A stretch of DNA of 64,000 nt from NCBI GenBank assembly GCA_963702005.1, contig OY969696.1:3232001-3296000 (forward strand), written 5' to 3'. The DNA comes from Candidatus Aminicenantes bacterium (GTDB lineage Bacteria > Acidobacteriota > Aminicenantia > Aminicenantales > JAFGBC01). Shown here in pieces: positions 15,053-42,727 of the stretch. The first letter of the stretch is position 1; every line of letters begins with the position of its first letter. The notes under the pieces were generated by a model. That model was not told the DNA's origin and made no database searches. It saw only the letters and a program-made list of their open reading frames with translations. A program made the position numbers and the translations under genes.

Positions 15053-15110
15053 TCACCCCTGATTTCACCCTGGGGGGTGATTGACCCCGCAGGAAGGGAC
15101 ATGGCATTGT
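15053..15110 (+). promoter_or_regulatory. Putative operator (TCACC repeat plus dyad) and promoter, copy 1
   Basis: TCACCC(15053)-N6-TCACCCT.GG.GGGGTGA-TTGACC-N18-CATTGT. Confidence 0.6.
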
Positions 15111-15151
15111 AGGCACGATTTGAGCAGGGACTTTAGACGAAGGATTCGATC

Positions 15152-15511
15152 ATGCTAAGGAAATCTTCCAGCAGCGATGCCCTTAGGCTGGGCGCCCTCG
15201 AGACGGGATTCAAACTTCCCCTGGCCACGACCGTCGAGGGGCAGGACGCCCAGGGCCGGCGGTTTCGGGAAGACACCAAGCTCTCCTACATCAGTCACCA
15301 GGGCGCCTCGTTCCTCCTCAAGAGCTCCATGACGATCGGCGCCAAGGTGAAGCTGATCATCGACCTTCCCCCTAGGCTTTCCGAGGACAAAGACCTCAAG
15401 CTCGCCATCCACGGCAAAGTCGTATTCGTCGAAGCGGGCGACCACGGGGAGGGACGCCTGAAGATTTCGGTCCGCCTCGAAAGCAAATACATCATCAAGC
15501 CCGAAGAATAA
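15152..15511 (+). CDS. PilZ-domain protein (degenerate c-di-GMP motifs)
   Basis: LP..V.G.D..G..F.E.T....IS..GA.F pattern; paralogous to 15633 and 16876. RxxxR is absent and N/D is replaced by Y (YISHQG). Confidence 0.7.
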   Translation: MLRKSSSSDALRLGALETGFKLPLATTVEGQDAQGRRFREDTKLSYISHQGASFLLKSSMTIGAKVKLIIDLPPRLSEDKDLKLAIHGKVVFVEAGDHGEGRLKISVRLESKYIIKPEE

Positions 15512-15564
15512 CCCCCGACACCCCCCCAGGGGTACCGTCCGGAGCGATCCGGGGTTAGTCCATA

Positions 15565-15621
15565 TCACCCTCCAAATCACCGCAAAGAGGGATTGTCGAA
15601 GGAAGCCGTCTGTCTCATAAT
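15565..15621 (+). promoter_or_regulatory. Putative operator and promoter, copy 2
   Basis: TCACCC(15565)-N6-TCACCGC.AA.AGAGGGA-TTGTCG-N17-CATAAT. Confidence 0.6.
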
Positions 15622-15632
15622 CAGCCTCTGCG

Positions 15633-16004
15633 ATGAATCGAGTGAAAACTGCCGAAAAATCATCCATCCAAGGCGCGACCGAAGAGGGAAAGAGAGAGCG
15701 GTCCTTCGAGCTCTCTCTTTCCGCTCTGGTATCGGGCCGGGACGTCCTGGATCGGGAATTCGAGGAAGAAACCTATATCGTCTCCATCAGCGCCCGGGAG
15801 GTCCACGTCGGGCTGACCTCGCCCGTCCAAACCGGTGCCAAGCTCCGGCTCAGCCTCCAAGTCCCCCAAACCCTCTACTTGGAAAAAGGACTATCCCTGG
15901 CCCTCTCGGGGACCGTCGCCCAGGTTCGGCCCGAATTCCCCCTGTCCTCGAAACGCTCGGTTTTACTGCGGCTCGACCGCCGGTTCCGGATCGAGCATAA
16001 CTGA
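15633..16004 (+). CDS. PilZ-like domain protein (degenerate)
   Basis: KRERSFEL...V.G.D.....F.E.T....ISARE pattern; paralogue of its neighbours. Confidence 0.65.
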   Translation: MNRVKTAEKSSIQGATEEGKRERSFELSLSALVSGRDVLDREFEEETYIVSISAREVHVGLTSPVQTGAKLRLSLQVPQTLYLEKGLSLALSGTVAQVRPEFPLSSKRSVLLRLDRRFRIEHN

Positions 16005-16054
16005 TCCCCCCCACCCCGGCCGATTTCGCCCCAAAAAGAGACATGCGATCGTTC

Positions 16055-16083
16055 TTGACAAAAAGTGTCCATTTATATAAAAT
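16055..16083 (+). promoter_or_regulatory. Near-consensus sigma70 promoter of the LuxR gene
   Basis: TTGACA-N17-TAAAAT, 10 nt before ATG 16094. Confidence 0.75.
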
Positions 16084-16093
16084 TTGCCTAAAA

Positions 16094-16846
16094 ATGAAGA
16101 AGATAGCCAAAAAAGACACGGCTGCTAAAGGGGAGACGGCCAGCAAGAAAGAACCCGCGCCCCCCAAGGCCAAACCCGTCGTCAGGACCAACGGACAGGT
16201 CCAGGTCCTCGTCTTCTGTCCCTCGGACCTGATCCTGGCCGGCATTCTCAAAGCCCTGGAACCGGACGCCGCGATCGAGGTTCTTAACATCGAGAAGAAC
16301 ACGATCGATATCTTCATGGATTCCATCCGGAAGCTCCGGCCCGAGGTCGTCCTGTTCGCTTCGATCGAGCCGCTCCCCAACATACGGGAGATCTGCAAGG
16401 CGATCCGCGAGCTGGCCAAAGGCCAGAAGACCCAGCTCCTCCTGCTGGGCAACATCCCCTCTCACGAGGAAGTCGTCGGACTCATCAATTCCGGGGCCAG
16501 AGGTTACTTCGACCTCAACGACCCCCTCAGCCAGTTGACCGAGGCCATCCGGATCGTCCAGAAGGGAGAGATCTGGCTGCCCCGCGACAAGATGTCGAGC
16601 ATCATGGACCGGATCATCTCGGTCGTCGGCCGCGACATGAAGGAAAAGACGCTCGACCAGCTGACGCCGACCGAATTCCAAGTCCTGCGGCTTATCGGCC
16701 AGGGCAAGAGCAACGACGAGATCGCCGAGGTTCTGTTCATCAGCAAGAACACCGTTCGTTCCCATATCAAGAGCATCTACGCCAAACTCGATACGCACAG
16801 CCGTCTCCAGCTCGCCCTCTACGCGATTAACTCAGCCCTCTTCTAA
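16094..16846 (+). CDS. LuxR/NarL-family regulator with pseudo-receiver domain (VpsT/CsgD-like)
   Basis: HTH LTPTEFQVL.LI.QGKSN.EIA..LFIS.NTV.SH...IY.KL. The receiver lacks the acidic pair, phospho-Asp and Lys. GEIWLPR motif present. Confidence 0.88.
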   Translation: MKKIAKKDTAAKGETASKKEPAPPKAKPVVRTNGQVQVLVFCPSDLILAGILKALEPDAAIEVLNIEKNTIDIFMDSIRKLRPEVVLFASIEPLPNIREICKAIRELAKGQKTQLLLLGNIPSHEEVVGLINSGARGYFDLNDPLSQLTEAIRIVQKGEIWLPRDKMSSIMDRIISVVGRDMKEKTLDQLTPTEFQVLRLIGQGKSNDEIAEVLFISKNTVRSHIKSIYAKLDTHSRLQLALYAINSALF

Positions 16847-16875
16847 GGACGGTCGGGGGATCCGACGAGGACGCC

Positions 16876-17298
16876 ATGACAAAAAAAGCCCCGGCCAAGA
16901 GTTCTTCCAAGAAGACGAGCCTGCTCGTCGACGATTCCCTTCACAACCGACGGCGAGAGTGGCGCCTCGACCTTCCCTTGGTGGTCGTCGTTGAAGGCAA
17001 GCTCCCCCGCGGCAACAAATTCCGCGAGCCGACCCAGCTCGAAAACATCAGCTCGGGCGGGGCTTATTTCTGTCTCGATTCGGGGATCATCGTCGGGTCC
17101 AAGCTCAACCTCGTCATCGACCTTCCCAAAAGGATGACCAAAGGGAGACGGGTCAAGCTCATGGTCGGCGGGACCACGGTCCGGCTCGAAGACGTCGGTA
17201 AAATGGTCAAAAAGCAGGGTGTCGCCGTCCGTTTTTTTAAACGTTATCGGTTCCTGCCTCCCAACCCCTCCTCCCCTCCCAAGCGGGCGGGAGGCTAG
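16876..17298 (+). CDS. PilZ-domain protein (intact c-di-GMP motifs)
   Basis: NRRREWR (RxxxR) and NISSGG (D/NxSxxG). Confidence 0.85.
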   Translation: MTKKAPAKSSSKKTSLLVDDSLHNRRREWRLDLPLVVVVEGKLPRGNKFREPTQLENISSGGAYFCLDSGIIVGSKLNLVIDLPKRMTKGRRVKLMVGGTTVRLEDVGKMVKKQGVAVRFFKRYRFLPPNPSSPPKRAGG

Positions 17299-17303
17299 GG
17301 ACC

Positions 17304-18047
17304 GTGCTGACCGTCGCGCTTACGGGAGGAATCGCCAGCGGAAAATCCGTCGTCGCTTCCATCCTGGGCGACCTCGGCTGCTTCATTCATACGGCCGACG
17401 CCGTCGCCCGCGAGCTCATGGCGCCGGGAGGGCCGGCCTTCGCCAAGGTCGTGGCCCGCTTCGGCCCGTCCATTCTCGCCCTCGACGGGTCGATCGACCG
17501 CGCCCGGCTGGGGGCCGTCGTTTTCGCCGACGCCTCGGCCCGGGCCGCCCTCAACGCCATCGTCCATCCGCTCGTGCTGGCAAAAAAAAAGAAGGTCATG
17601 GCCGCCCTCGAGCGGGACGGCCGCACCTCCATCTACGTTTCCGAGGCCGCCTTGACCGTCGAGGCGGGATTCCAGGCTTACTTCGATACGGTCGTCGTCA
17701 CGACCTGCCGGCCCGAGATTCAGCTCCGCCGGCTCATGGACCGAGATGGGATCGGCGAGGAGGAGGCCCTCCGCAAGATCCGCTCCCAGATGCCGGCCGG
17801 GGAGAAAGTCAAGTTCGCCGATCACGTCATCGACACGTCGGGGAGCTTGGCCGAAACGGTCGAGCGGACGGAGGAAGTCTGGCGGGCCCTGGTTCAAGCC
17901 GCCGCTCTCAAGGAAAAGCCTAAGCGCGCAGGGCGGCCGCAAAGAGAGGGATCAGCAGCTCGTGGGGCCCGACAAAGTAAAACCCCCGGCCCTTCTCGCC
18001 GACGGGGCGGCGGACGACGTTCTGGTAGGGCCGGTAGTGATGGATGA
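17304..18047 (+). CDS. coaE: Dephospho-CoA kinase
   Basis: ALTGGIASGKS P-loop, IDR..LG..VF, LN.IVHP, SQMP and AD.VID motifs. The C-terminal tail overlaps the convergent gene. Confidence 0.93.
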   Translation: MLTVALTGGIASGKSVVASILGDLGCFIHTADAVARELMAPGGPAFAKVVARFGPSILALDGSIDRARLGAVVFADASARAALNAIVHPLVLAKKKKVMAALERDGRTSIYVSEAALTVEAGFQAYFDTVVVTTCRPEIQLRRLMDRDGIGEEEALRKIRSQMPAGEKVKFADHVIDTSGSLAETVERTEEVWRALVQAAALKEKPKRAGRPQREGSAARGARQSKTPGPSRRRGGGRRSGRAGSDG

Positions 18048-18984
18048 AATCGAAGACGGCCGTTGAGAAATTCTCGACCTTGGTCCCTTTGTTCCGGACG
18101 TAGTTGAGAGCTTTGAGAAAGACCTCGGGCAGGATGACGGCCGAGCCGGCGTTGATGAAGACGCCACCCTCCCCCAGCCCCTCCAGGATGCCGCAGAGCA
18201 GGAAGAAATCCTGAAGAGACGTCTTCCCCAGCGCCTCCCCGCTCGCTTGGGGATGGACATGGATCGTGTCCGTTCCGAGCGCGACGTGGACGGTCGCCGG
18301 AATGCCCTGGCGCTGGGCGGCCGCGAGCAGGCTGAGATCTTTGTGCGGGAAATCGGAGGCGGCGATCATCCGCCCGACGGCTTCGCCCAGACCGAGCCCG
18401 GCCCGGGCGCCTTCGTTGATGGCGCGGTTGATGAGCTCGCCCGTCTCCCGGGCCATCCCGAACCGGCCGTCCCGGATCCGGTCCTCGACGTCCTCCGAGG
18501 TTTGGCCGGCGAAGGCGATCTCGAAATCGTGGATGACGCCTGCGCCGTTGAGGACGAGGGCCGTGATCCAGCCTTCCCGGATGAGGTCGATCAGGACGGG
18601 GCTCAGGCCGACCTTGATGACGTGGGCGCCCATTCCGAAAACGACGGCCCGCTCCCGGCTCCGGGCGCTCCGGACCAGACCGCAGAACTCACGGAGGTCC
18701 TTGGCGGACAGGAAGTCGGGAAGGTTGGAGAGGAAACGGCCGACCGTGTCCTGGGAGGTCGAGGAGCGGGCGAACTGCCCGACATGAACCTTGCTCGGCC
18801 GCGAGCGAAGGGAATAGGTCTTTAATCCCTGGCGGGCGGGCGGGCGGACCACGGCCCCGCTTTGGGTCTGAAGGCTCGACTCCGTTCGGCCCTTGTTCGA
18901 GGCGCCGCGGCGCCGCCGGATAGTCTTGGTGGTCTTCGTAGTCTTGGGCATGGTCGGGATCGGACGGCCCGGGTCGGCCGTCAC
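17920..18984 (-). CDS. Conserved hypothetical protein, deoxyhypusine-synthase-related fold
   Basis: GAHVIKVGL, NGAG.IHDFE, G.TSEDV, G.FGMA.ETG, HVALGTD, GSAVILPEVFLKA and G.HE motifs. GTGA overlap with the HU/IHF stop. Confidence 0.7.
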   Translation of the reverse strand: MTADPGRPIPTMPKTTKTTKTIRRRRGASNKGRTESSLQTQSGAVVRPPARQGLKTYSLRSRPSKVHVGQFARSSTSQDTVGRFLSNLPDFLSAKDLREFCGLVRSARSRERAVVFGMGAHVIKVGLSPVLIDLIREGWITALVLNGAGVIHDFEIAFAGQTSEDVEDRIRDGRFGMARETGELINRAINEGARAGLGLGEAVGRMIAASDFPHKDLSLLAAAQRQGIPATVHVALGTDTIHVHPQASGEALGKTSLQDFFLLCGILEGLGEGGVFINAGSAVILPEVFLKALNYVRNKGTKVENFSTAVFDFIHHYRPYQNVVRRPVGEKGRGFYFVGPHELLIPLFAAALRA

Positions 18985-19256
18985 TTGTTGGCCAGGTGCT
19001 TGAGGTCCTGGCCGGAGCGGAATTTTACGCGCCGGCCTTCGGCGATCTTGATCTGTTTACGGCGGCGGATGTCGCGGCCGAAGCCCGTCTTCTTGGCCAC
19101 GACCTTGAAACTGCCGAACCCCCGGATCTCGATTTTCTCGGACGCGGCCAGCGCGCGCTTGAGGGCGTCGAGGATGGTCTCCACGATCTGCAAAGACTTG
19201 GCCCTGTTCAATTCGGTCTTCTTCTCAATTACAAGGGCGATGTCGTTCTTGATCAT
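18981..19256 (-). CDS. HU/IHF-family DNA-binding protein
   Basis: M.K.DI...; E.IEIRGFGSF; VKFR.G..LK. Confidence 0.92.
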   Translation of the reverse strand: MIKNDIALVIEKKTELNRAKSLQIVETILDALKRALAASEKIEIRGFGSFKVVAKKTGFGRDIRRRKQIKIAEGRRVKFRSGQDLKHLANK

Positions 19257-19335
19257 GGGAGAACTCCTCTGCTCCGCAAAACGTAGGCACATAATAATTA
19301 AACAAACACCCTAGAAAAGTCAACCCCTCGACACC

Positions 19336-19363
19336 CATACTAAGCCGTTTTCGGCTTAGTATG
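19336..19363. repeat. Perfect 12-bp inverted repeat
   Basis: CATACTAAGCCG-TTTT-CGGCTTAGTATG in the divergent HU/nfeD spacer. Confidence 0.8.
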
Positions 19364-19465
19364 AGTACTGCAAGGCTGGGTAGCGTCGGCGAACGGGTCA
19401 AGATCGCCGCCGTTTCGGCGCGGTCGCGTCGGCAGGCGCGGAGGAGACAGACCGGGCGTTATCGG

Positions 19466-19494
19466 TTGACTTGAGATCGGGACCTTTCTATAAT
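19466..19494 (+). promoter_or_regulatory. sigma70 promoter of the nfeD operon
   Basis: TTGACT-N17-TATAAT, 9 nt before GTG 19504. Confidence 0.7.
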
Positions 19495-19503
19495 CAAAGC
19501 AAG

Positions 19504-20781
19504 GTGAAAAAGTTTCCGCTCCTTTGGCTGTGGCTGGCGTCCGCCTCGACGCTTTCAGCGGGGACGGTCCTCCGCCTCGACGTCCAAGCGCCCATTCATC
19601 CCATCAGCTCGGAGTACATCCGAAACGGCATCGCCCGGGCCGAGCGCGACGGCGCCGCCCTCATCATCCTCCGCCTCAACACCCCGGGCGGGTTGGACTC
19701 GTCGATGCGCGAGATCATCGAACGAATCCTGGCCTCGCGCGTCCCGGTCGCTGCCTACGTGAGCCCGAGCGGGGCCCGGTCGGCCTCGGCCGGCTTCTTC
19801 ATCGGCGTCGCCTGCGATCTGTTCGTCATGGCGCCGGGAACGAACACGGGGGCCGCCCATCCGGTCGGGATCGGGATCGGCGGCCAGGCCATGGACAAGA
19901 CCACGGAGGACAAGATCACCCATGACGCGGCCTCCTACATTAAAACCCTGGCCGAACGGCGCGGCCGGAATGTCAAGATGGCCGAGGACGCCGTTCGCAA
20001 CAGCTTGTCCTACACGGAGAAAGAGGCCCTGGCCGGCAAGCTGATCGATTTCATCGCCGCCGACGAGGCCGAGCTCCTGGCCCGCCTGGACGGTAAAACG
20101 GTTCGGCTCTTCAACGGCGAAGAGCGGACCCTCGGCCTCAAGGACGCCCGGATCGTGGACCTGCCCATGTCGTTCCGGCAGAGGTTTCTGATCACGATAT
20201 CGAACCCCAATTTAGCCTACATCCTGCTCATGCTGGGACTGCTCGGCCTCTACTTCGAGTTCGCGAACCCGGGCGCCATCCTGCCCGGGGTATTTGGCGG
20301 CATCAGCCTGCTCCTGGCCATCTTCGCCTTCCAGATCCTGCCCATCAACTACGTCGGCCTTCTTCTCATCCTGCTGGCCGTCGCCTTTTTCGTCCTCGAA
20401 GTCAAGGTCCACAGCTACGGACTGCTGTCGGTGGGAGGAATCGCCGCCATGGTCATCGGATCGCTCATGCTCATCAACGCCCCCATCCCGGAAATGAAGC
20501 CGAGCCTGAGCATAATCATTCCGGTCGCCCTGAGCGTGTCGGCGATCGTCATCTTTCTCGTCTTTCTCGTCGTCCGCGCCCACCTCCGGCGGGCCGTCAC
20601 CGGTCGCGAGGGGCTGCTGGGCGAGATCGGGGAAACCCGGACCGAACTCTCTCCCGAAGGCCGGGTCTTCGTCCACGGCGAAATCTGGAACGCGGTGGCC
20701 GACCGGCCGCTGGCCAAGGGCGTCAAAGTCAAAGTCATCGAAGTCCTGGATCATCTCAAGGTCCGGGTGACCGAAATTTAG
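19504..20781 (+). CDS. nfeD: NfeD-family membrane-bound serine protease (ClpP class)
   Basis: LNTPGG, A.SAG, MAPGTN.GAAHP, TM region and C-terminal OB fold (G.V.V.GE.W.A); adjacent to a slipin gene. Confidence 0.93.
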   Translation: MKKFPLLWLWLASASTLSAGTVLRLDVQAPIHPISSEYIRNGIARAERDGAALIILRLNTPGGLDSSMREIIERILASRVPVAAYVSPSGARSASAGFFIGVACDLFVMAPGTNTGAAHPVGIGIGGQAMDKTTEDKITHDAASYIKTLAERRGRNVKMAEDAVRNSLSYTEKEALAGKLIDFIAADEAELLARLDGKTVRLFNGEERTLGLKDARIVDLPMSFRQRFLITISNPNLAYILLMLGLLGLYFEFANPGAILPGVFGGISLLLAIFAFQILPINYVGLLLILLAVAFFVLEVKVHSYGLLSVGGIAAMVIGSLMLINAPIPEMKPSLSIIIPVALSVSAIVIFLVFLVVRAHLRRAVTGREGLLGEIGETRTELSPEGRVFVHGEIWNAVADRPLAKGVKVKVIEVLDHLKVRVTEI

Positions 20782-20802
20782 GGCCGAAAAAGGAGGCATG
20801 TC

Positions 20803-21558
20803 ATGGTCTTTTGGCCGCTGTGGATCGTCGGGTTTTTCGTTCTTTATATTCTCAATTCGATCAAAATCCTGAGGGAGTACGAGCGGGGCGTCATCTTCCG
20901 TCTCGGCCGCGTCCTGCCCAAGCCCAAGGGGCCGGGCATCATCCTCGTTTTCTCGCCGATCGACCGCATTGTCAGGATCAGCCTGCGGCTCATCACGATG
21001 GACGTCCCGCCGCAGGACGTCATCACCAAGGACAACGTCACGGTGAAGGTCAACGCCGTGCTCTACTTCAGGGTCATCGACCCGCTCAAGTGTGTGATCG
21101 AGGTCCAGGATTACATCTACGCCACGTCCCAGCTGGCCCAGACGACCCTGCGCAGCCTCCTCGGTCAGGTCCCGCTCGACGACCTTCTCTCGGAGCGGGA
21201 CAAGTTGAACGCCCGCCTCCAGGAGATCATCGAGCAGCACACCGACCCCTGGGGCATCAAGGTCCAGCTCGTCGAGATGAAACAGGTCGACCTGCCGGAG
21301 AACATGATCCGGGCCATCGCCAAGCAGGCCGAGGCCGAGCGCGAACGGCGGGCCAAGGTCATCCACGCGGACGGCGAATTCCAGGCCGCCGACAAGCTGG
21401 TCCAGGCCGCCGACATCATTTCCCGCAACCCCCAGGCCCTCCAGCTCCGCTTCCTCAGCACCCTGACCGAGATCGCGACCGAGAAGAATTCGACGATCAT
21501 TTTCCCGCTTCCCCTCGAACTCCTCAGGGCCTTCACATTTGACAAAAAGGATAAATAG
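20803..21558 (+). CDS. SPFH/stomatin-like (slipin) protein
   Basis: [41 protein letters not shown] and LQLR motifs. Confidence 0.95.
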
Positions 21559-21576
21559 AAGTAGATAGAAAGTGAT

Positions 21577-22251
21577 ATGAGCAACAAGGACTACCGCGAG
21601 CTTCAGGTCTCGAGCTCCCATCTCGTCGTCATCTTCATCGGCATCCTGATCATCTGCGGGATCAGCTTTCTGCTCGGCGTCAACGTCGGGAAGAAGAAAA
21701 CCCAGCTCCAGGGCCAGACTTCCCTCCCCTCCCCCCAGGTCTTGTCCAAGGTCCAGGACCAGAAACCGGAGCCGAAACAGGCCGGGCCATCCTTGAAACC
21801 GGAGGCGGCTCCGGGCCGGACCTCCAAGCCGGCTTCGGAACAAGCCGGAGAAAGCGGCGGGGCCAAAACGCCCTCCCAGGCCAAGGAACCCGCTCCGGGA
21901 CCCGCTTCCAAAACCATCGAGTCCGCGAAGCCAAAGCCGGCCCCCACGAAGCCGGCGACCGCGTCGCCGACGACGTCTTCAAAAATAACCCCGCCCCCCC
22001 TGACGGCGGCCAAGGGGACCTTTTCCATCCAGGTCGCCGCGTTCGAGAAGCGCGAGGACGCCCTTCAAGCCGCCAAGAAATTCGACGGCCAGGGCTATAT
22101 CTGCCGCGTCCTCGACCCCTTCCCCGGCGACCGGATCAAATACTACCGAGTCAGGATCGGCGCTTTCAAGACCCGAGATGAAGCTCTGGCCGCCCGAAAT
22201 AAGTTTCTGACGACCGGACACAAGAGCGATTATTTCGTGGTCCAGAATTGA
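21577..22251 (+). CDS. SPOR-domain cell-division protein (FtsN/DedD-like)
   Basis: Single TM helix, Pro/Ala-rich linker, C-terminal F.IQVAAF...YRVRIG.F SPOR domain. Confidence 0.85.
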   Translation: MSNKDYRELQVSSSHLVVIFIGILIICGISFLLGVNVGKKKTQLQGQTSLPSPQVLSKVQDQKPEPKQAGPSLKPEAAPGRTSKPASEQAGESGGAKTPSQAKEPAPGPASKTIESAKPKPAPTKPATASPTTSSKITPPPLTAAKGTFSIQVAAFEKREDALQAAKKFDGQGYICRVLDPFPGDRIKYYRVRIGAFKTRDEALAARNKFLTTGHKSDYFVVQN

Positions 22252-24907: not shown

Positions 24908-24910
24908 TCC

Positions 24911-31173: not shown

Positions 31174-31182
31174 CCGGAGATC

Positions 31183-34400: not shown

Positions 34401-34445
34401 GAAAAAAATTTGAATACCAATCATCGCGTCTCAGGAGATAATTTT

Positions 34446-34721
34446 ATGTATTACATTCTGTTCTACAAGACGGTCGACAACTACGTTGAAAAGCGCGCTC
34501 CTTATCGGGAGGAGCATCTCGGCTATGGCCGAGCGGCGCACCGGCGCGGCGAGCTGGTCATGGGAGGCGCTCTCTCCGAACCCGCGGACGGCGCCGTGCT
34601 GGTATTCAAGGGCGAGAGCCCGGCCGTTACGGAGAACTTCGCCAAAAACGACCCTTACGTTAGGAATGGATTAATCGTCGAATGGAAAGTTCGTCCCTGG
34701 ACCGTCGTCATCGGCGGCTGA
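34446..34721 (+). CDS. YciI-like protein
   Basis: R.P.R.EH; GA; F...DPYV.NG....W.VR.W; AGGAG RBS. Confidence 0.88.
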   Translation: MYYILFYKTVDNYVEKRAPYREEHLGYGRAAHRRGELVMGGALSEPADGAVLVFKGESPAVTENFAKNDPYVRNGLIVEWKVRPWTVVIGG

Positions 34722-34770
34722 TGGACGGCCTTGAAAAGTCGGCGGGGAGCGTGTATGATGAGGCTCGATC

Positions 34771-35067
34771 ATGAGCGAAGAAGGCAGAACCGAAGAAGGT
34801 CAGGGGTTCCTCCCCCCGGTCGAGTTTTCGACGATCGTCCTCCCGCTCTACATCCAGGCCTCGATTAAGCTGGGCCTGATCGAAGACCCTCAGACCGGGA
34901 AGACCGAGGAAGACCTCGACTTCGCCAAGCGGCTCATCGACGTCCTCGACCTCCTCAACGACCGGACCAAGGGCAACTTGGAAAAGGAAGAGGAGGTCCT
35001 GCTCGGCTCCTGCCTCCAGCAGCTCAAGATGAACTATCTCAAGAAATCCAAGATCATCTCCCTCTGA
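34771..35067 (+). CDS. DUF1844-domain protein
   Basis: LG...P.TG....DL..AK..ID.L..L..RTKGNL..EE..LL. Confidence 0.85.
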   Translation: MSEEGRTEEGQGFLPPVEFSTIVLPLYIQASIKLGLIEDPQTGKTEEDLDFAKRLIDVLDLLNDRTKGNLEKEEEVLLGSCLQQLKMNYLKKSKIISL

Positions 35068-35071
35068 AGGC

Positions 35072-35995
35072 ATGGTCCTCATCACCCGGCCGTCCCAACT
35101 TACCCGGAGCCGTCGCTTGACGGCGGTCGCCATAGGAAACTTCGACGGCCTTCATCTCGGACACCGGCGGGTCCTGAAGACGCTCGTCGAGTCCGCCCGC
35201 CGCGGCCGTCTCCGGCCGATCGTCCTCACTTTCTCCCCGCATCCCGAAAAGGTCCTGGGCGGGAGGGCGATCCATATGATCCAGACCCTGGACCGTCGCG
35301 TCGATGGAATCCGCTCCTCCGGGATCCCGGACGTGAGAATCATGGCCTTCAACCGGGCCTTCGCCGGACTCCCGGCCGCCCGCTTCGCCGAAGAGATCCT
35401 CGCCCATCGGCTCAAAGCCCGGACGGTCGTCGTCGGCGCCGGTTTTCGCTTTGGGAAAGGACAGGAAGGGACCGCCGCGGCCCTTGCGGCTTGGGGAAGG
35501 CGGCTCGGGTTTTCAGTCAGGGCCGTTCCGTCCCTGCGCAAAGACGGCGGCCTCGTCTCGAGCTCGCGGATCAGGCGGCTTCTCGAGGCGGGCCGGATCG
35601 GCGAGGCCAATCGCCTCCTCGGCCGGCCCTACGAAATCGAGGGTTGCGTCGTCCGGGGGCACGCCCGGGGCCGCGCGCTCGGGTTCCCCACCGCTAATAT
35701 CCGCACGCCCAACGAGATACTGCCGCGGGGAATTTTCATCGCCAAACTCGTCCTGGGACGTCGGGAGCTGCCCGCCCTGGCCTACATCGGAACCCGGCCG
35801 ACCTTCCGGGAAACGACGATGGAGGTCGAAGTCCATCTCCTGGGCTTCCTGGGCGATCTCTACGGCCGCGCGGTCCGCGTCCTCTTCCTGAGGAAGCTCA
35901 GGGACGACCAAACCTTCCCCCGCCCGGAAGCGCTCGTCCGCCAGATGGCAAGGGACGCGGCGGCGGCCCGCGCCCACTTCCGGCGCTTAGCTTGA
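35072..35995 (+). CDS. ribF: Bifunctional riboflavin kinase / FAD synthetase
   Basis: IGNFDGLHLGH, TF.PHP, SSS.IR, GFPTAN, G.RPTF and EVH motifs. Confidence 0.96.
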   Translation: MVLITRPSQLTRSRRLTAVAIGNFDGLHLGHRRVLKTLVESARRGRLRPIVLTFSPHPEKVLGGRAIHMIQTLDRRVDGIRSSGIPDVRIMAFNRAFAGLPAARFAEEILAHRLKARTVVVGAGFRFGKGQEGTAAALAAWGRRLGFSVRAVPSLRKDGGLVSSSRIRRLLEAGRIGEANRLLGRPYEIEGCVVRGHARGRALGFPTANIRTPNEILPRGIFIAKLVLGRRELPALAYIGTRPTFRETTMEVEVHLLGFLGDLYGRAVRVLFLRKLRDDQTFPRPEALVRQMARDAAAARAHFRRLA

Positions 35996-36084
35996 CTTTT
36001 TCCCTGAGATATAGCATTTTTAGGACTCCGAACGTCGGCCGGAGGGGCGCCTTCGGTCCCGGCAACGCTCCGAGGAGGACGGTC

Positions 36085-36642
36085 ATGGACGACAAAGTCA
36101 AAGCCAAGGTCATGGACAACAACAAGATCCGGCGCGCCCTGTACCGGATGACGACCGAGATCATCGAGCGGAACCGGAACCTCAAGAACCTGGCCATCGT
36201 CGGGATCCGGACCCGGGGCATCTACATCGGCAAGCGGATCGCCCAGCTCATCAAGGAGTTCGAGCGGGTCGAGGTCCCGGTCGGCGTCATGGACATCACG
36301 CTCTACCGGGACGACATCGGCGAAATCGAGAGCCAGCCCGAAGTCCAGAAGACCGAGATCGAATTTTCAATCAACAAGAAAGACGTCCTCCTCGTCGACG
36401 ACGTTCTGTTCACGGGCCGAACGATCCGGGCCGCCATGGACTCCCTGTTCGACCTGGGCCGGCCCCAGACGATCCAGCTCCTCGTCCTGGTCGACCGCGG
36501 CCACCGCGAGCTTCCGCTCCGGGCCGACTACGTCGGCAAATTCCTGCCGACCTCGCGCCGCGAGACCGTCCAGGTCCGGCTCAAGGAGATCGACGACAGC
36601 GACGAAGTCCTGATCACGGAGCCCGCCGACCTCAAAAAATAG
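36085..36642 (+). CDS. pyrR: Pyrimidine operon regulatory protein / UPRTase
   Basis: [27 protein letters not shown] and DRGHRELP motifs; GAGGAGG RBS. Confidence 0.96.
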
Positions 36643-36658
36643 ACGAAGAGGAGACCCC

Positions 36659-37597
36659 TTGGAGCTCAAGTCCAAACACCTGCTGGGGATCGAGACGCTG
36701 GAGCCTTCGGAAATCCGGCTCATTCTCCAGACGGCCGATTCCTTCCTCGAGATCTCGACCCGCGAGATCAAGAAGGTCCCGACCCTGCGCGGCAAGACGC
36801 TCATCAACCTCTTCTACGAAGCCAGCACCCGGACGCGAAGCTCGTTCGAGCTGGCCGGCAGGCGGCTGAGCGCCGACATCCTGAACTTCAGCAGGCAGTC
36901 CTCGTCCGTCGTCAAGGGGGAAACCCTCCGGGATACGATCCTAACCCTGGAGGCGATGCGGCCGGACGCCATCATCATCCGCCACGGCTCCTCGGGGTCG
37001 GCCTACTACCTGACGACCTTCTGCCGCTCCCACGTCATCAACGCCGGCGACGGCCTCCACGAACACCCGACCCAAGCCCTCCTCGACGCCTATACGATCA
37101 GGCAGGAGAAGAAGTCCTTCAAGGACCTCAAGGTCGTCCTGTGCGGGGACATCCTCCACAGCCGGGTCGCCCGCTCGAACCTCCATTGTCTGAAGAAGCT
37201 GGGCGCCGACCTGACCCTGTGCGGCCCGCCTACCCTCCTCCCGCCCGCCTTCGGGGCCTTCGGCGTCAAGATCCAGCACGATTTCGACAAGGCCTTGGAC
37301 GGGGCGGACGTCATCATGATGCTCCGCATCCAGCTCGAGCGGATGCAGAAGAGCTTCTTCCCCTCGGTTCGGGAATACCACCGGCTCTACGGGCTGACGG
37401 CCGAACGGGTCGCCCGGGCGGCCAAGGATGCCATCGTTATGCACCCCGGCCCCATCAACCGCGGCGTCGAGATCGCCCCCGACGTCGCCGACTCGGCCCA
37501 GTCCCTGATCCTCAGGCAGGTCGAGAACGGGGTCGCCATCCGGATGGCCGTCCTCTACCTGCTCTTAGGAGGCAAAGAAAGTGAAAGTGTTGGTTAA
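36659..37597 (+). CDS. pyrB: Aspartate carbamoyltransferase catalytic subunit
   Basis: [27 protein letters not shown] and HPGPINRG motifs. Confidence 0.97.
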
Positions 37598-38862
37598 AAA
37601 CGGGCGGGTCATCGATCCCGTCTCCGGCATCGACGAGAACTCTGGACATCCTGATCGACAAGGGCAAGATCGCCGAGCTCAAGCCCCAGATCAAGGCCGA
37701 GGATGTCAAGACGGTGGACGCCGCCCGGCTCGTGGTCGCGCCCGGATTCATCGATATGCACGTCCATCTTCGCGAGCCCGGCCAGGAGCATAAAGAGACG
37801 ATCCGGACCGGAAGCCGGGCCGCCGCCCGGGGCGGTTTCACGACGATCTGCTGCATGCCGAACACCGTTCCCCCCAACGACAACCGCGGCGTCACGGAGT
37901 ACATCCTGTCCGAGGCCCGCAAGAGCGCCGTCGTCAACGTCCTTCCCATCGCCGCCATCAGCAAGGGGCTCAAGGGCGAGGAGTTGGCCGACCTGGCCGA
38001 CCTGGCCGCGGCCGGAGCCGTCGGCTTCTCGGACGACGGCAAGCCCCTCGCGAACAGCCTTCTGATGCGCCGGGCCCTCGAGTACACGCTCCCTCTCAAG
38101 CCGCTCGTTATCGACCACTGCGAGGAGCGGAGCTTGAGCGAGGACGGCCATATGCACGAGGGCTTCTGCTCGCACCGCTTCGGGATCCGGGGCATGCCCG
38201 CCGCAGCCGAGGAGATCATGGTCGCCCGGGACATCATCCTGGCCGAGCAGGCCGGAGCCCGTATCCACATCGCCCACCTGAGCGTCAAGGGCGCCGCGCG
38301 GTTGGTCCGGGAGGCCAAGGCCCGCAAAGTCCGGGTCACGGCCGAAGTGACGCCCCATCACCTTGTCCTAACCGACGCCGCCCTGGAGAGCTACGACACG
38401 AATTTCAAGATGAATCCGCCCCTCAGGAGCGAGGAAGACGTCGAGGCCCTGCTCGAGGCCGTCAAGGACGGGACGATCGACGTCATCGCCACCGACCACG
38501 CCCCCCACGCCGCCGAGGACAAGGACCAGGAATTCGACCTGGCCTCCTTCGGGATCACCGGCCTGGAGACGGCCGTCTCCGTTCTCCTCGACCGGCTCGT
38601 CCACAAGAAGATCATCTCGCTCGCCCGGCTCATCGAGCTGTGCGCCTCGAACCCGGCCCTCATCCTAGGCCTTGAAGGTAAGGGACGGATCACTCCCGGG
38701 GCCGACGCCGACCTCGTCCTCCTCGCCCTCGGCAAGGAGATCGTCGTCGAAGCCGGCGAGTTCCAGTCGCTGGGCCGAAACAGTCCTTTCATCGGCTGGA
38801 AGCTCAAGGGGACGCCGGTCATGACGATCGTCGGCGGACGAATCGTCTACCCCTTCGCCTGA
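37581..38862 (+). CDS. pyrC: Dihydroorotase, interrupted by a 1-nt frameshift near 37638
   Basis: N-terminal [13 protein letters not shown] lies in one frame; [11 protein letters not shown]...[21 protein letters not shown] and ATDHAPH lie in the next. Confidence 0.92.
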
Positions 38863-38864
38863 CC

Positions 38865-39602
38865 ATGAATCTTTCGGCCCTGGAGAAAAAGCTCGGCTAT
38901 ATGTTCCGGGACAAAGAGCATCTCTTCCGGGCCTTGACCCACAGTTCCTTCGCCTACGAGGCCCCCGACCGGGCCGCCGGCGACAATGAAGTCCTCGAGT
39001 TTCTGGGCGATTCCGTCCTCGGCCTGGTCGTGGCCGATTTCGTCTGCGCCGCCTACCCCCACCTGTCCGAGGGCGAGTTGTCCAAGCTCAAGGCCTCCGC
39101 CGCCAGCACCCTCGGCTTGGCCGAGTTCGCGCTTAAGGTCAAGCTCGACAAGCTCGTCCTGCTCGGCAAGGGCGAGGAGAAGAGCGGCGGCCGTAAAAAA
39201 AAGACGATCCTGGCCGGCGCCTTCGAGGCCGTCATGGGCGCCCTCTACATCGACGGCGGCTACGAGTCGGCCCGGCGCGTCCTCTGGCCGATCCTGGAGT
39301 CCTCGTTCAAAAAGCTCAAAAACAAGGACATCCTGATCAACAACTACAAGTCCGCCCTCCAGGAGCACTTCCAGAAACAGGATTGGCCGCCGCCCGTCTA
39401 CCGGACCATCGAGTCGGCCGGCCCCGACCACAAGAAGGAATTCACGGTCGAGGTCGGACTCGGGGAGCGCGCCCTGGCCAGCGCCAGCGGCCCCTCCAAG
39501 AAAGCGGCCGAACAGAATGCGGCCCAGAAGGCGCTAAAGAAAATCTGGGGCCGGAAGATCAAGCCCCTGTCCCAGGACATCTTCTTCTTTAAGAAGAAAT
39601 AA
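38865..39602 (+). CDS. rnc: Ribonuclease III
   Basis: ALTHSS, NE.LEFLGD, FEA..GA.Y.DGG; dsRBD K..LQE...SKK.AEQ.AA. Confidence 0.96.
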   Translation: MNLSALEKKLGYMFRDKEHLFRALTHSSFAYEAPDRAAGDNEVLEFLGDSVLGLVVADFVCAAYPHLSEGELSKLKASAASTLGLAEFALKVKLDKLVLLGKGEEKSGGRKKKTILAGAFEAVMGALYIDGGYESARRVLWPILESSFKKLKNKDILINNYKSALQEHFQKQDWPPPVYRTIESAGPDHKKEFTVEVGLGERALASASGPSKKAAEQNAAQKALKKIWGRKIKPLSQDIFFFKKK

Positions 39603-39620
39603 GGGCCGTCCGGCAAACCC

Positions 39621-40271
39621 ATGGCCAAGTGTTCCCGCTGCGAGACGAGAAAGGCCCGGCGCCGCTGCACGGCCTTGGGGAGCGACATCTGCAGTCTGTG
39701 CTGCGGTCGGATCCAAGGGAAGGACATCCATTGCCCGCCCGGCTGCGAGTATCTCGCCCAACATACGCCTTACCAGGAAAAAAAGGTCCTGGAACGCAAG
39801 GCCGTCCCGGCCGCCGGTTCCGCCCGGCGCAAAAAAGAGGCGGCCCTGGATGAACGGATGAAGTGGCTCCTCTTCTCCCTGGAGGCGATCCTCAAAGAGA
39901 TCGCGGACAGGAGCCCGGCTTTCCGCGATAAGGACGTCCTCCTCGCCTGCCAATACGCTAAGGACAAGCTCGCCAAGGGCGAACGCCGCCTCATCCTGCC
40001 GGGTGAAATCCATCGGCCCGGGAACGCGGCCGGGGAGGCCGTTTACCAGGCGGTCAGCCGCTGCCGCTTCGAGCGGACATCCCTGATCGTGGGCACCGCC
40101 GAAGCCTACACGTCCGAGGAGCAAACGGCCGCCCTCGATGATCTCATCCAGACCGTCAAATCCATCGCCCGGGATCAATGGGAAGGCCGGACCTTCCTTG
40201 ACCGGCTGAGTGAGCGGTTCGACCGGATCGGCGGGCTCTCCGGCGAGCCGAAGCTTATCAAGCCCGTCTGA
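39621..40271 (+). CDS. Hypothetical protein with N-terminal Cys-rich metal-binding module
   Basis: CSRC-x8-C-x7-CSLCCG-x8-CPPGC.YL. Confidence 0.7.
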   Translation: MAKCSRCETRKARRRCTALGSDICSLCCGRIQGKDIHCPPGCEYLAQHTPYQEKKVLERKAVPAAGSARRKKEAALDERMKWLLFSLEAILKEIADRSPAFRDKDVLLACQYAKDKLAKGERRLILPGEIHRPGNAAGEAVYQAVSRCRFERTSLIVGTAEAYTSEEQTAALDDLIQTVKSIARDQWEGRTFLDRLSERFDRIGGLSGEPKLIKPV

Positions 40272-40290
40272 TTCTTCAAAGGAGGCTCTG

Positions 40291-41514
40291 ATGACAGAAG
40301 AAACCCCGGTCAAGGCTTACGGTTATCGCTGGCTGGTCCTCTTAGCGTTCATGGTCATCGGAGGCATGACCCAGGTCCTCTGGATCACCTTCGCTCCCGT
40401 CACCAGCGCGGCCGCCGTATTCTACCACACCTCGGACCTCATGATCGGCCTGCTCTCGATGAGCTTCATGATCGTCTACATCATCGTCGTCCTCCCCTCG
40501 GCCTGGGCGATCGACACCTGGGGGTTCCGCAAAGCCGTCGGCTTGGGGGCCGCCCTCACCGCCGTCTTCGGCCTGACGCGCGGGATTTTCGCCTCGAATT
40601 TCACCGTTGTTTTCCTGTCCCAGGTCGGCATCGCCGTCGGCCAGCCCTTCGTCATCGGCGCCATCACCAAGGTCGCGGCGCGCTGGTTTCCCGCTAAAGA
40701 ACGGGCCACCGCCTCCGCCGTCGGCACGCTGGCCCTTTACCTTGGTCCCCTGGCGGCGATGCTCCTGACGCCCTTCTTGGTGTTGCGCATCGGCCTGCCG
40801 CACACGCTCCTAGTTTACGGCGTCGCCGCGGCTGCGGCAGCGGTCCTGTTCCTGGTCATAGCCCGCGAGCATCCCCCGACGCCGGCCGGTCGGGACGAGC
40901 GCGTCCTTATGTTAGAGGGGCTCAAGTCCATGCTACGCCAGCGCGACTTCATCTACCTTCTGATTATGTTCTTCGTCGGGCTGGGCATGTTCAACGGCGT
41001 ATCGACCTGGATCGAGGACATCATCCGTCCGCGCGGGTTCACCATATCTCAGGCCGGCTTGCTGGGCGGGCTGATGCTCGTCGGCGGAATTATCGGCGCC
41101 GTCATCATGTCCCTCATTTCCGATCAGTCCCGGCGCCGCAAGCCCTTCCTGGTCCTGGCCCTGGCCGGTCTCCTGCCCGGTCTCGTCGGCATGACCTTCG
41201 CGACCAGCTCCTGGCTGCTGTACCTTTCGGGCTTTGTCCTCGGCTTTTTCCTGCTCAGCGCCGGACCGATCGGCTTTCAATACGCCGCCGAGATCACCCA
41301 TCCCGCCCCGGAGGGGACCTCCAACAGCTTGCTGCTGGTCATGGGACAGATTTCCGGCATCATCTTCATCCTGGCCATGGATGTCTTCAAGAATCCGGCC
41401 AGCAAGGCCATGACGACGTCGCTCTTGGCCCTGACCGTCATGACGGCCGGATGCGCCATGCTGGCCACCCGCCTACCCGAGTCCCCCATCTCTCGGGCCC
41501 ATCCGGAAAAATAG
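40291..41514 (+). CDS. MFS transporter
   Basis: 12 TM helices; D..G.R, WFP..ERA.A and SD...RRK motifs; GGAGG RBS. Confidence 0.9.
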   Translation: MTEETPVKAYGYRWLVLLAFMVIGGMTQVLWITFAPVTSAAAVFYHTSDLMIGLLSMSFMIVYIIVVLPSAWAIDTWGFRKAVGLGAALTAVFGLTRGIFASNFTVVFLSQVGIAVGQPFVIGAITKVAARWFPAKERATASAVGTLALYLGPLAAMLLTPFLVLRIGLPHTLLVYGVAAAAAAVLFLVIAREHPPTPAGRDERVLMLEGLKSMLRQRDFIYLLIMFFVGLGMFNGVSTWIEDIIRPRGFTISQAGLLGGLMLVGGIIGAVIMSLISDQSRRRKPFLVLALAGLLPGLVGMTFATSSWLLYLSGFVLGFFLLSAGPIGFQYAAEITHPAPEGTSNSLLLVMGQISGIIFILAMDVFKNPASKAMTTSLLALTVMTAGCAMLATRLPESPISRAHPEK

Positions 41515-41576
41515 GCCCGCCCAGAAATCGGGTTTATCAAGGGAGTCGGGGTTGCGGATTCCGGGGCCGCCCCGAC

Positions 41577-42596
41577 TTAGGTGCTGAGGAGCGATTCGAC
41601 GAAGCGCAGCGAGGGGACGTTCCCGCAGACGATTTTAATGACGGCCGTGATCGGGACGGCCAGGATCATGCCGGGGATCCCCCACAGCCATCCCCAGAAA
41701 AAGAGGGAAAACAGGACGGCCAGCGGGCTGAGGCCCAGACCCTTCCCCATCAGCTTGGGCTCGACGACTTTACTGACAATAGTGTCCGAAGTCGTGATAA
41801 TGAGCAGGATCCAGAGCGCGGGCCAGATCGACCCGAACTGGAAAAAAGCGAACAGCACGGGAAGGGCATTGGCGATGATCGAGCCGATGTTGGGGATGTA
41901 ATTGAGCAGGAAAATCAGGAACCCGAAGACGATCGCGAAATCGACACCGAACAGGATCAGGACCAGAGTGGCGGAGGCCGCCGACAACAGGCTGATGATC
42001 GTCTTGATGGCCAGGTACTTCTGGACTTGACGGTCGATCTTGTCCATGACCTGGTTGATCGTCCGGGCCCGGGATTTGGGGAAGGAGCGGTCGACCTTGA
42101 CCTTGATCTTGCCGCGGCCGGCCAGCATGAAGATCAGGAAAATAAAGATCAGAAACAGGTTCGAGATGAAAGCCACAAAAGAACCCAGGGAAGCGAGGAG
42201 GAACGAGCCGATTTTATTGATGTCCAGGGCCCCGATCATGGCCGTCGGGTCCCACTTGACGTGCCATGCCGTCATCCGCCCCTTGAGGTACTCCAGAACC
42301 CCGTTTATCCGGTCCCCGTATTGGGGGAGCTGGGCGCTGAAGGTCTTCCCGCTCGAGTAAAACATGGCGCCCATCAGGTACAGGGCCAGGAAGAAGAAGA
42401 GAACGATGACCACGATGGCGACCGCCTTGGGAATCCGAAGGCGGATGAGGGCATCCAGGATGGGCGACAGGACGAAGTAAAAGAGGAGGGCCAGGCTGGA
42501 GGGGAAGAGGACGGGCTTGGCGATCCTCAGGACGACCCCGGCCAAGAAGACGAGGATAAGGACCAGGGAAACGGTCAGGATCTTATTATCCTTCAT
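41577..42596 (-). CDS. AI-2E family transporter
   Basis: Y...KT, LLNYIPNIGS, EP..MG..LGLSP and WG..GM.LAVP motifs. Confidence 0.92.
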   Translation of the reverse strand: MKDNKILTVSLVLILVFLAGVVLRIAKPVLFPSSLALLFYFVLSPILDALIRLRIPKAVAIVVIVLFFFLALYLMGAMFYSSGKTFSAQLPQYGDRINGVLEYLKGRMTAWHVKWDPTAMIGALDINKIGSFLLASLGSFVAFISNLFLIFIFLIFMLAGRGKIKVKVDRSFPKSRARTINQVMDKIDRQVQKYLAIKTIISLLSAASATLVLILFGVDFAIVFGFLIFLLNYIPNIGSIIANALPVLFAFFQFGSIWPALWILLIITTSDTIVSKVVEPKLMGKGLGLSPLAVLFSLFFWGWLWGIPGMILAVPITAVIKIVCGNVPSLRFVESLLST

Positions 42597-42671
42597 GATC
42601 GGCCGGAGAAGGGTATTATAGGGGAAAAAGGAAGAAAAATAAAAGCGGGGTGAGTCCCCCCGGCCTAAAAA

Positions 42672-42727
42672 TCACCCGGGGATTCACCTTCAAAGGCGAT
42701 GGACGGCCCGGGGGATTGCGTTATCCT
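42672..42727 (+). promoter_or_regulatory. Putative operator and promoter, copy 3
   Basis: TCACCC(42672)-N6-TCACCTT.CA.AAGGCGA-TGGACG-N16-TATCCT. Confidence 0.6.

Follow-up and report, generated by a model that had tools for sequence, protein, structure and literature searches.

The stretch of DNA analysed here, referred to as the window, comprises 64,000 nucleotides (G000:C1:3232001-3296000) of the genome of a Candidatus Aminicenantes bacterium (G000), which consists of a single contig of 4,309,361 bp with 60% G+C. The window contains three promoters that carry the same array of short boxes, two of them in front of small open reading frames (ORFs) upstream of a LuxR-type gene and the third in front of an operon encoding a hybrid kinase, a diguanylate cyclase, and a phosphotransfer protein. 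In the initial annotation of the window, this array was proposed to be an operator through which the LuxR-type protein encoded at 16094 activates genes for the synthesis of cyclic diguanosine monophosphate (c-di-GMP) and PilZ genes, forming a feedback circuit. The gene order around the first two promoters is a divergent prolyl-tRNA synthetase gene, the two small ORFs, the gene for the protein with a GerE/LuxR-type helix-turn-helix (HTH), a Pfam-positive PilZ gene, and coaE. The promoters and the genes associated with them are as follows, in window coordinates.

15030..15110, plus strand: operator and promoter 1, with an upstream GGTGA at 15030-15034, box A at 15053-15057, box B at 15065-15069, and box C (GGTGA) at 15076-15080.
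15081..15110, plus strand: core of promoter 1, with the -35 hexamer TTGACC at 15081-15086 and TGG followed by the -10 hexamer CATTGT at 15102-15110 (the hexamer itself at 15105-15110).
15152..15511, plus strand: PilZ paralogue 1, 119 amino acids, with degenerate c-di-GMP motifs, assigned by hhalign and Foldseek.
15565..15621, plus strand: operator and promoter 2, with box A at 15565-15569, box B at 15577-15581, and a degenerate box C (GAGGGA) at 15587-15592.
15593..15621, plus strand: core of promoter 2, with the -35 hexamer TTGTCG at 15593-15598 and the -10 hexamer CATAAT at 15616-15621.
15633..16004, plus strand: PilZ paralogue 2, 123 amino acids, with degenerate motifs, assigned by hhalign.
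16055..16083, plus strand: the LuxR gene's own promoter, TTGACA-17-TAAAAT, with 11 of 12 matches to the sigma-70 consensus.
16094..16846, plus strand: candidate regulator with a LuxR/GerE-type HTH, 250 amino acids (Pfam GerE PF00196, 2.2e-20, residues 205-261).
16876..17298, plus strand: canonical single-domain PilZ-3 (Pfam PilZ 2.2e-5, above the cut-off), 30 bp past the LuxR stop codon.
42649..42727, plus strand: operator and promoter 3, with an upstream GGTGA at 42649-42653, box A at 42672-42676, box B at 42684-42688, and a variant box C (GGCGA) at 42695-42699.
42700..42727, plus strand: core of promoter 3, with the -35 hexamer TGGACG at 42700-42705 and the -10 hexamer TATCCT at 42722-42727.
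42849..45668, plus strand: PAS-PAS hybrid histidine kinase with a C-terminal receiver (Pfam PAS, HisKA, HATPase_c, Response_reg).
45661..46653, plus strand: REC-GGDEF diguanylate cyclase (Pfam GGDEF 7.2e-49, Response_reg 6.4e-27).
46574..47068, plus strand: Hpt phosphotransfer protein (Pfam Hpt 1.8e-10).

The start codon of the hybrid kinase is uncertain; its frame is open from 42699, and TTG at 42849 is the first start past promoter 3. In NCBIfam, the REC-GGDEF protein matched the GGDEF domain model above its cut-off, and partial matches to PleD and DgcR were below theirs.

The same spacing that had been claimed for the three promoters was found at all of the coordinates. Box A (TCACCC) begins at 15053, 15565, and 42672, box B (TCACC) begins 12 bp further on at 15065, 15577, and 42684, and GA, 14 bp past box B, runs directly into the -35 hexamers TTGACC, TTGTCG, and TGGACG, respectively. 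The -10-like hexamers CATTGT, CATAAT, and TATCCT follow with spacers of 18, 17, and 16, respectively, and TGG stands before the first of them. The pattern TCACCC-N6-TCACC-N9-GAT[GT]G had 3 matches in the window, versus a mean of 0.00 and a maximum of 0 in 100 dinucleotide-preserving shuffles. Over both strands of the whole genome, it had 4 matches, namely the three in the window and one at 3024422(-). The letters of the 7-2-7 dyads at the proximal sites also read as annotated, and the extra GGTGA elements at 15030 and 42649 are present and correspond to a recurrent -22/-23 box of the operator. Two further elements that had been assigned to the system exist as letters but were not retained as parts of it. 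GGTGA at 14976 lies 77 bp upstream of box A, an offset that does not recur among the sites, and the dyad at 15519-15534, which exists as ACCCC..GGGGT, reads as a hairpin past a stop codon.

This G+C-rich hairpin (ACCCC...GGGGT, window 15511-15533) lies directly past the stop codon of PilZ paralogue 1. The only signal recorded for it was that of a terminator-like site on the minus strand, and it possibly acts as a separator between the two box-driven units. On the other side of site 1, a near-consensus TTGACA-17-TAAAAT was observed on the minus strand at window 14938-14966, divergent from site 1, and it presumably serves the prolyl-tRNA synthetase gene. Because of this promoter, the long GTG-started ORF of the synthetase (13452-15116) probably starts further in.

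The genome was scanned with a position weight matrix (PWM) of 37 columns. Its training set consisted of 66 sites (55 unique), taken from the regions ahead of the LuxR orthologue at 78 loci in other genera, and included neither G000 nor two loci from its own genus. The scan of G000 gave 21 matches above 8 bits, including 19 above 20 bits; in a first-order Markov genome, 2 matches exceeded 8 bits and none exceeded 10 bits. Sites 1, 2, and 3 of the window scored 47.0, 40.7, and 36.7 bits and ranked second, third, and fifth among the 21 matches, respectively. With the PWM lacking the -35 columns, 22 matches above 16 bits were obtained, versus 0 in a block-shuffled genome, and the best 18 matches all ran directly into a -35-like hexamer (TTGNNN in 13, TGGNNN in 2, TTTACN in 2, and TTCCGC in 1). 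Because the register against the -35 hexamer was kept when the -35 columns were removed, it is a property of the genome and not of the matrix.

The logo of 189 unique sites reads AAwa-TCACCC-N4-aT-TCAyC-N3-A-gGGGtGA-TTGAcc, with -10 signals at +52 (A) and +56 (T). Counted from the first base of box A, the half-sites are TCAYC at -33, GGTGA at -22, TCACC at 0, TCAYC at +12, and GGTGA at +23. The operator thus has up to five half-sites of 5 bp, about 11 bp apart on one face of the helix, with an A-tract just before box A, and it can be described as two TCAYC-N6-GGTGA dyads plus an orphan TCACC. The final box abuts the -35 hexamer (+28 to +33), and the -10 element follows at about +51 to +56. GGTGA at -22 (+/-1) was found in 10 of the 21 G000 sites, 19 of 27 pilB sites, 6 of 7 kinase sites, and 45 of 134 LuxR-locus sites, and TCAYC at -33 in 10 of the 27 pilB sites and 5 of the 7 kinase sites. 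Assuming that transcription starts about 7 nt past the -10 element, the proximal TCAYC-N6-GGTGA dyad would be centred at about -44. LuxR/TraR-type dyads are centred near -42, and NarL binds 7-2-7 sites. In 18 of the 18 top sites, the final box abuts the -35 hexamer, the position of a class II activator site, and several member promoters have poor -35 hexamers (TGGACG, TTCCGC, and TGGAGG).

The boxes are conserved in orthologous promoters, a check that the initial annotation had named. Among loci of pilB orthologues (67-95% identity), a site scoring 10 bits or more was present in 28 of 30, covering all nine sampled families; it points in the direction of the gene and lies 100-270 bp ahead of the start. 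At LuxR loci, 76 of 80 had at least one site within 2.5 kb upstream, a count that is not fully independent because the matrix was trained on part of those sites. In most of the 80 loci, the distance from a site orthologous to site 1 to the downstream LuxR orthologue is about 0.9-1.4 kb. Site 2 is also kept, about 0.5-0.8 kb ahead of the LuxR orthologues. Three of the four loci without such a site are at contig ends with less than 130 bp of upstream sequence, and the fourth has a site 2.75 kb upstream. Apart from this site and the upstream sites, no other match was found in the LuxR loci of about 10 kb. In the orthologous promoters, the boxes stay while spacers and flanks diverge freely, and the information content is confined to the boxes. 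When the hybrid kinase was used as the query, 8 of 30 loci (G000 and seven other genomes) had a site of 30-49 bits upstream in gene orientation. The G000 arrangement, with the kinase-linked site well away from the LuxR gene, recurs in several of the seven others, where 15-19 kb separate the site from the LuxR orthologue.

A loose pattern applied to three complete genomes from two other families matched 15, 13, and 11 times, versus 0-1 for the reversed control. Of these 39 matches, 23 were fetched, and all 23 scored above 25 bits; the others were LuxR and pilB sites that had entered the earlier counts, or strings that were not box-like. Their targets were minor pilins (3 genomes), coaD-pilMN (2), propeller kinases (2 in one genome), REC/TonB_C proteins (3), HD-GYP genes (2 genomes), an operon of a 660-amino-acid protein with an HD protein (1), peptidases, an SLT transglycosylase, and SH3 proteins. 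Outside the order, the pilB loci of 11 genomes from other orders of the class (orthologues of 57-65% identity) had no site, the best match scoring 5.3 bits. A loose IUPAC pattern applied across 150 genomes of the phylum had given 0-18 matches outside the order, which represented coding background with strings unlike the boxes, and it was replaced by the pilB-promoter test.

The targets of the 21 matches in G000, named from the Pfam/NCBIfam annotation of the first one to three genes per site, are as follows.

Small roadblock-like protein, with a Ras/Arf-like GTPase gene 2.4 kb further on the same strand.
PilZ paralogues 1 and 2.
REC-TonB_C protein, with a LysE gene 1 kb further on the same strand.
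The hybrid kinase/REC-GGDEF/Hpt operon.
Two Reg_prop/Y_Y_Y/PAS (propeller) kinases, one of which has a GGDEF gene 470 nt further on the same strand.
Two PAS-HD-GYP proteins.
A 660-amino-acid protein of no assigned family, with an HD-GYP protein.
Minor pilins with PilW and PilY1.
pilB-pilT-pilC.
coaD-pilM-pilN.
BNR, NHL, and outer-membrane barrel proteins, and several unannotated proteins.

At least two of the 21 sites have no ORF behind the promoter. The HD and GYP signatures are present in all three HD_5 targets. Out of 12 HD_5 and about 9 GGDEF genes in the genome, 3 and 1-2, respectively, are in box-driven operons; a further HD-GYP gene lies in divergent orientation to a site, and a GGDEF gene faces a site convergently. 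The enrichment predicted before GGDEF, HD-GYP, PilZ, and pilus genes was thus seen in the genome-wide scan. The proposal of a c-di-GMP regulon was borne out in that c-di-GMP genes are among the targets, but the regulon is far wider, with about 20 promoters, and is centred on type IV pili. Likewise, the proposed theme of c-di-GMP synthesis holds for the REC-GGDEF operon, but the c-di-GMP part of the regulon is mainly degradative, with three HD-GYP genes versus one or two GGDEF genes. Sequence analysis indicates that about twenty sigma-70-type promoters form one regulon of type IV pilus, c-di-GMP turnover, and sensor genes, the last of these including the two large propeller kinases; several surface proteins belong to it as well. 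The window's three promoters were confirmed as the visible tip of this conserved, predicted regulon, and its c-di-GMP theme is supported but incomplete.

Several features of individual sites were observed. The top-scoring site in the genome (51 bits; L003, genome 3019001-3028000, minus strand) drives a 158-amino-acid protein without a family match, and several ORFs without a family match lie between this protein and the Ras/Arf-like small GTPase 2.4 kb further on. That the two form a polarity module like MglA/MglB is a guess. Sites 346787(-) and 1565750(+) have nearly identical operators with TTTAC -35 elements in AT-rich DNA (G+C at third codon positions about 0.35-0.48), and one of them is the promoter site of a PAS-HD-GYP gene. 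Their appearance suggests either a recent duplication or an acquired island. Coenzyme A genes also stand beside the system: coaE (window 17304-18047) follows PilZ-3, and coaD (genome 1463614-1464132) opens coaD-pilM-pilN, being first in this box-driven operon in G000, G017, and G023.

G000 has three copies of a unit in which the operator and a promoter are followed by a conserved leader, about 110 nt long and predicted to form three hairpins; they are at genome 2070413(+), 3165996(-), and 3159812(+) (L105:480-680, L106:5322-5522 on the minus strand, and L109:480-680). Two of the copies precede BNR- and NHL-repeat proteins, and the remaining one points at the 3' end of a GGDEF gene that is convergent with it. 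The unit is restricted to this genus, with 3 copies in G000 and 1 in G001, and has no Rfam match; it could represent either a small RNA or a 5' leader that its targets have in common. A further site, 2300492(+) (L099:501-680; 32 bits), has no ORF behind its promoter; a stem with a T-run, GGGTTTTTAT, follows about 110 nt past the site, and AT-rich convergent genes come next. The predicted transcript is a candidate small RNA of the regulon. An Rfam search of four loci with box-driven leaders gave a sub-threshold match to mir-1303 only, which was taken as chance.

The initial annotation had called both small ORFs PilZ genes. Pfam gave no match to either of them even at E<=1, and a profile search of PDB sequences gave nothing below an E value of 0.79. 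Profile-profile comparison by hhalign aligned paralogue 1 with the PilZ-3 family at 99.7% (E 2.5e-25), paralogue 2 with PilZ-3 at 99.6%, and paralogue 1 with paralogue 2 at 99.8%. With an AlphaFold2 model of paralogue 1 (pLDDT 79), the top Foldseek matches were the PilZ domains of MotI (5vx6), BcsA (5ej1), and Alg44 (4rt0), followed by those of VCA0042, MrkH, and YcgR, with modest E values from 3.5e-4 and TM scores of 0.57-0.59, and split-barrel flavoproteins were mixed in. The combined motif RxxxR...[DN]xSxxG was present in 0 of 29 members of the paralogue-1 family, 0 of 29 of the paralogue-2 family, and 32 of 32 PilZ-3 proteins (as RRxxxR). The assignment as PilZ therefore stands by profile and fold, with the reservation that the ORFs lack a Pfam match and that their c-di-GMP motifs are degenerate. 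A canonical PilZ with RRxxxR...[DN]xSxxG directly follows the LuxR orthologue in all 78 loci that have at least 500 bp of downstream sequence, mostly with a gap of 0-30 nt. Elsewhere in the window, at 60816-61238 (+), a second stand-alone Pfam-positive PilZ gene (140 amino acids) was observed with no box before it.

The LuxR-type protein was compared with PDB sequences by phmmer. Its residues 36-248 aligned with residues 2-207 of VraR (5hev) with an E value of 3e-21, so that the N-terminal domain was homologous to a receiver along its whole extent, and VpsT was next (1.1e-13). No Pfam Response_reg domain was reported in the protein at E<=1e-3, and the active-site segments VDDHE, LMDLV, IVTSF, and GYLLK of VraR are replaced by FCPSD, LFASI, LLGNI, and GYFDL, respectively. 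The acidic pair, the acceptor Asp, the Thr, and the Lys are all affected, and an alignment of 31 orthologues showed these replacements to be conserved. Since the protein has a pseudo-receiver, it is not classed as a working two-component regulator. GEIWLPRDK of the protein aligned on DEMWLTRKL of VpsT, and WLPR was found in 79 of 79 orthologues. The VpsT-type c-di-GMP motif is given as W[F/L/M][T/S]R in a review (PMC7288161), and R134 of this motif in VpsT is described as needed for c-di-GMP binding (PMC3359988). The protein keeps the Trp and the Arg of the motif and departs from it at the third residue, Pro, and by this motif it falls outside the VpsT group that senses c-di-GMP; as in QstR and BrpT, WLPR stands here in a VpsT-like LuxR protein. 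Because the phospho-acceptor Asp is missing and the motif is the WLPR variant, the protein is probably QstR/BrpT-like and blind to both phosphorylation and c-di-GMP.

One orthologue of this protein per genome, with 67-93% identity, was found in 41 of 41 genomes of the order. The linker and the HTH (residues 158-250) are nearly invariant across the order, which fits a regulator constrained by many conserved targets. Eleven genomes from other orders of the class had no orthologue, their best matches being generic relatives of 25-28% identity, and none was found at E<=1e-30 in 150 genomes of the phylum outside the order (148 without the unpublished G064 and G089). In one metagenome-assembled genome, the orthologue has an in-frame stop (L050:5001-5702), which could be a sequencing error or mark a pseudogene; the upstream boxes and the PilZ genes there are intact.

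The two best-conserved sites are directly upstream of the LuxR gene in the same orientation, and LuxR is the only DNA-binding protein of the cluster. The regulator and the box also share their range, both occurring in the order and neither in the 11 sampled genomes of other orders. We consider the LuxR protein encoded at 16094 a rather likely regulator of the operator, and the assignment and the mode of action are a well-motivated inference. For the whole statement, which joins a conserved operator and regulon, this protein as the regulator, and activation, the balance is also favourable, although more modestly so. A LuxR dimer would bind the proximal dyad, further protomers would fill the phased upstream boxes, and the protein would act in a class II manner by touching RNA polymerase at -35. 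If c-di-GMP acts on the circuit, it would enter via the canonical PilZ-3 that is predicted to be co-transcribed with the LuxR gene. Any such input is more likely to pass through this co-operonic PilZ because the regulator carries WLPR.

Several points weigh against activation of the whole regulon by the LuxR protein. Two of the 30 pilB loci (G019 and G004) have no site although their genomes encode the regulator. Among the kinase loci, 22 of 30 have no site; these matched the C-terminal half alone with about 45% identity and are probably paralogues. For about one third of the targets (peptidases, NHL/BNR proteins, and unannotated proteins), no link with pili or c-di-GMP is apparent. Statistically, the shared occurrence of regulator and box carries little weight, because it goes back to a single origin in one order. 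Since the LuxR promoter is near-consensus and box-free, with no PWM match above 8 bits, classical autoregulation is not evident, barring read-through from the upstream small genes. In addition, several member promoters, such as that of site 1, pair a near-consensus -35 with an extended -10, and such promoters should need no activator, so that repression or dual control is possible.

The foremost alternative, which we regard as unlikely, is that a different transcription factor binds the operator and that the LuxR protein is a mere neighbour or a downstream member of the regulon. This would agree with the LuxR gene's own box-free consensus promoter and with the presence in the regulon of three sensor kinases without assigned DNA-binding partners; boxes A and B, as a direct repeat with a 12-bp period, would also suit a winged-helix response regulator, and the LuxR HTH is linked to TCACC by adjacency, by shared occurrence in a single order, and by its near-invariance. 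However, no other DNA-binding protein was seen among the annotated downstream genes (the first one to three per site) in four genomes, and LuxR is the only HTH protein in the conserved cluster and shares the range of the box (41/41 inside the order, 0/11 and 0/150 outside). The geometry of the TCAYC-N6-GGTGA dyad likewise fits dimers of the GerE family.

A second alternative retains the LuxR protein as the ligand of the operator and makes it mainly a repressor, or a dual regulator, that occupies the region of the UP element and of the C-terminal domain of the RNA polymerase alpha subunit together with the edge of the -35 hexamer. Site 1 and many of its orthologues have TTGACC with a TGn-extended -10 and should be strong unaided; for QstR, which also has WLPR, dual regulation has been reported (10.1101/337857), and VpsT is described as both activating and repressing (PMC8754643). 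Against it, the boxes in the 18 top sites lie upstream of the -35 hexamer in every case and never over the -10 element or the start, and the poor -35 hexamers of several members are typical of activator-dependent promoters. We regard predominant repression or dual control as quite improbable. A third alternative, in which a small mobile repeat inserts at TTGAC, thus lands in -35 boxes, and contributes its end as a shared sequence that is no regulator's site, is very improbable: G000 has recent duplicates (the 346787/1565750 pair and the three-copy leader unit), but the boxes outlast their diverging flanks and spacers, the sites precede the same kinds of genes in genomes of different families, and an element inspected at the speE promoter of this genome has no TCACC boxes, unlike the operator.

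Activation by the LuxR protein can be extended to a more specific and rather doubtful model. The two degenerate PilZ paralogues are the strongest and the best-conserved targets of the regulon. The regulator would be a signal-blind pseudo-receiver protein switched by the co-operonic PilZ-3, so that c-di-GMP would act on about 20 promoters by way of a PilZ adaptor, and the c-di-GMP-blind PilZ paralogues would be induced decoys that compete with PilZ-3 for the regulator. The loop would be closed via HD-GYP and GGDEF proteins, and an oligomer over the five half-sites would contact RNA polymerase at -35. If true, this model would show a 'dead' receiver domain re-wired to a second messenger via a partner protein and would give a role to degenerate PilZ paralogues, which are common but poorly understood.

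Aminicenantes are abundant, uncultured bacteria of sediments and wetlands. The analysis defines an operator sharply, proposes a complete candidate regulon with one candidate regulator, and ties type IV pili, and with them surface behaviour, to c-di-GMP turnover. Its predictions are testable in vitro or in a heterologous host, that is, culture-free. A literature search found no paper on gene regulation in Aminicenantes and none joining Aminicenantes and c-di-GMP, and for Aminicenantes, type IV pili, and a regulator it returned work on Latescibacteria only.

At NarL 7-2-7 sites and at the class II lux-box promoters of LuxR/TraR, a dimer with a GerE-type HTH binds inverted half-sites, and the dyad lies just upstream of, overlaps, or abuts the -35 element. 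Unlike NarL sites, the operator described here has the half-site TCAYC instead of TACYYMT and up to three more phased upstream half-sites, for which the multi-site arrays of ComA or BvgA are a closer likeness.

VpsT of Vibrio cholerae (PDB 3KLN/3KLO) resembles the LuxR protein encoded at 16094 in having a LuxR/CsgD-type HTH behind a receiver-like domain. VpsT is described as controlling about 23 loci, as activating the diguanylate cyclase operon vpvABC from a promoter-adjacent T-box in a positive feedback, and as appearing to oligomerise over about 60 bp at vpsL (PMC8754643). The initial annotation knew of no description of such a feedback circuit in this lineage, and the literature search found none there; a loop between VpsT and a diguanylate cyclase has already been described in V. 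cholerae (PMC8754643). Unlike VpsT, the Aminicenantes protein has Pro instead of Thr/Ser as the third residue of the motif, and its phospho-acceptor Asp is replaced. Its system also differs in a sharper, five-box DNA motif, in targets for pili and HD-GYP proteins instead of exopolysaccharide, and in the three flanking PilZ genes.

QstR and BrpT carry the identical WLPR motif and belong to a different phylum. To our knowledge, no PilZ partner and no pilus-assembly regulon is known for either of them. QstR of V. cholerae and BrpT of V. vulnificus are reported to act independently of c-di-GMP with their WLPR motif, and QstR, which functions as a dimer, becomes c-di-GMP-dependent as QstR[P129T] (10.1101/337857; PMC6237807). 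No common DNA motif was found for QstR in that work (10.1101/337857). A precedent for the putative control of the LuxR protein by PilZ-3 is TssZ (PA0012)-HinK of Pseudomonas aeruginosa, in which a single-domain PilZ protein is described as binding a LuxR-superfamily regulator and blocking its DNA binding in a c-di-GMP-tuned manner (PMC10912698). HinK is described there as LasR-type and not as a pseudo-receiver protein. Unlike in the TssZ-HinK system, the PilZ gene in Aminicenantes is co-operonic with the regulator gene in 78 of 78 loci, and two further, degenerate PilZ paralogues are among the predicted targets.

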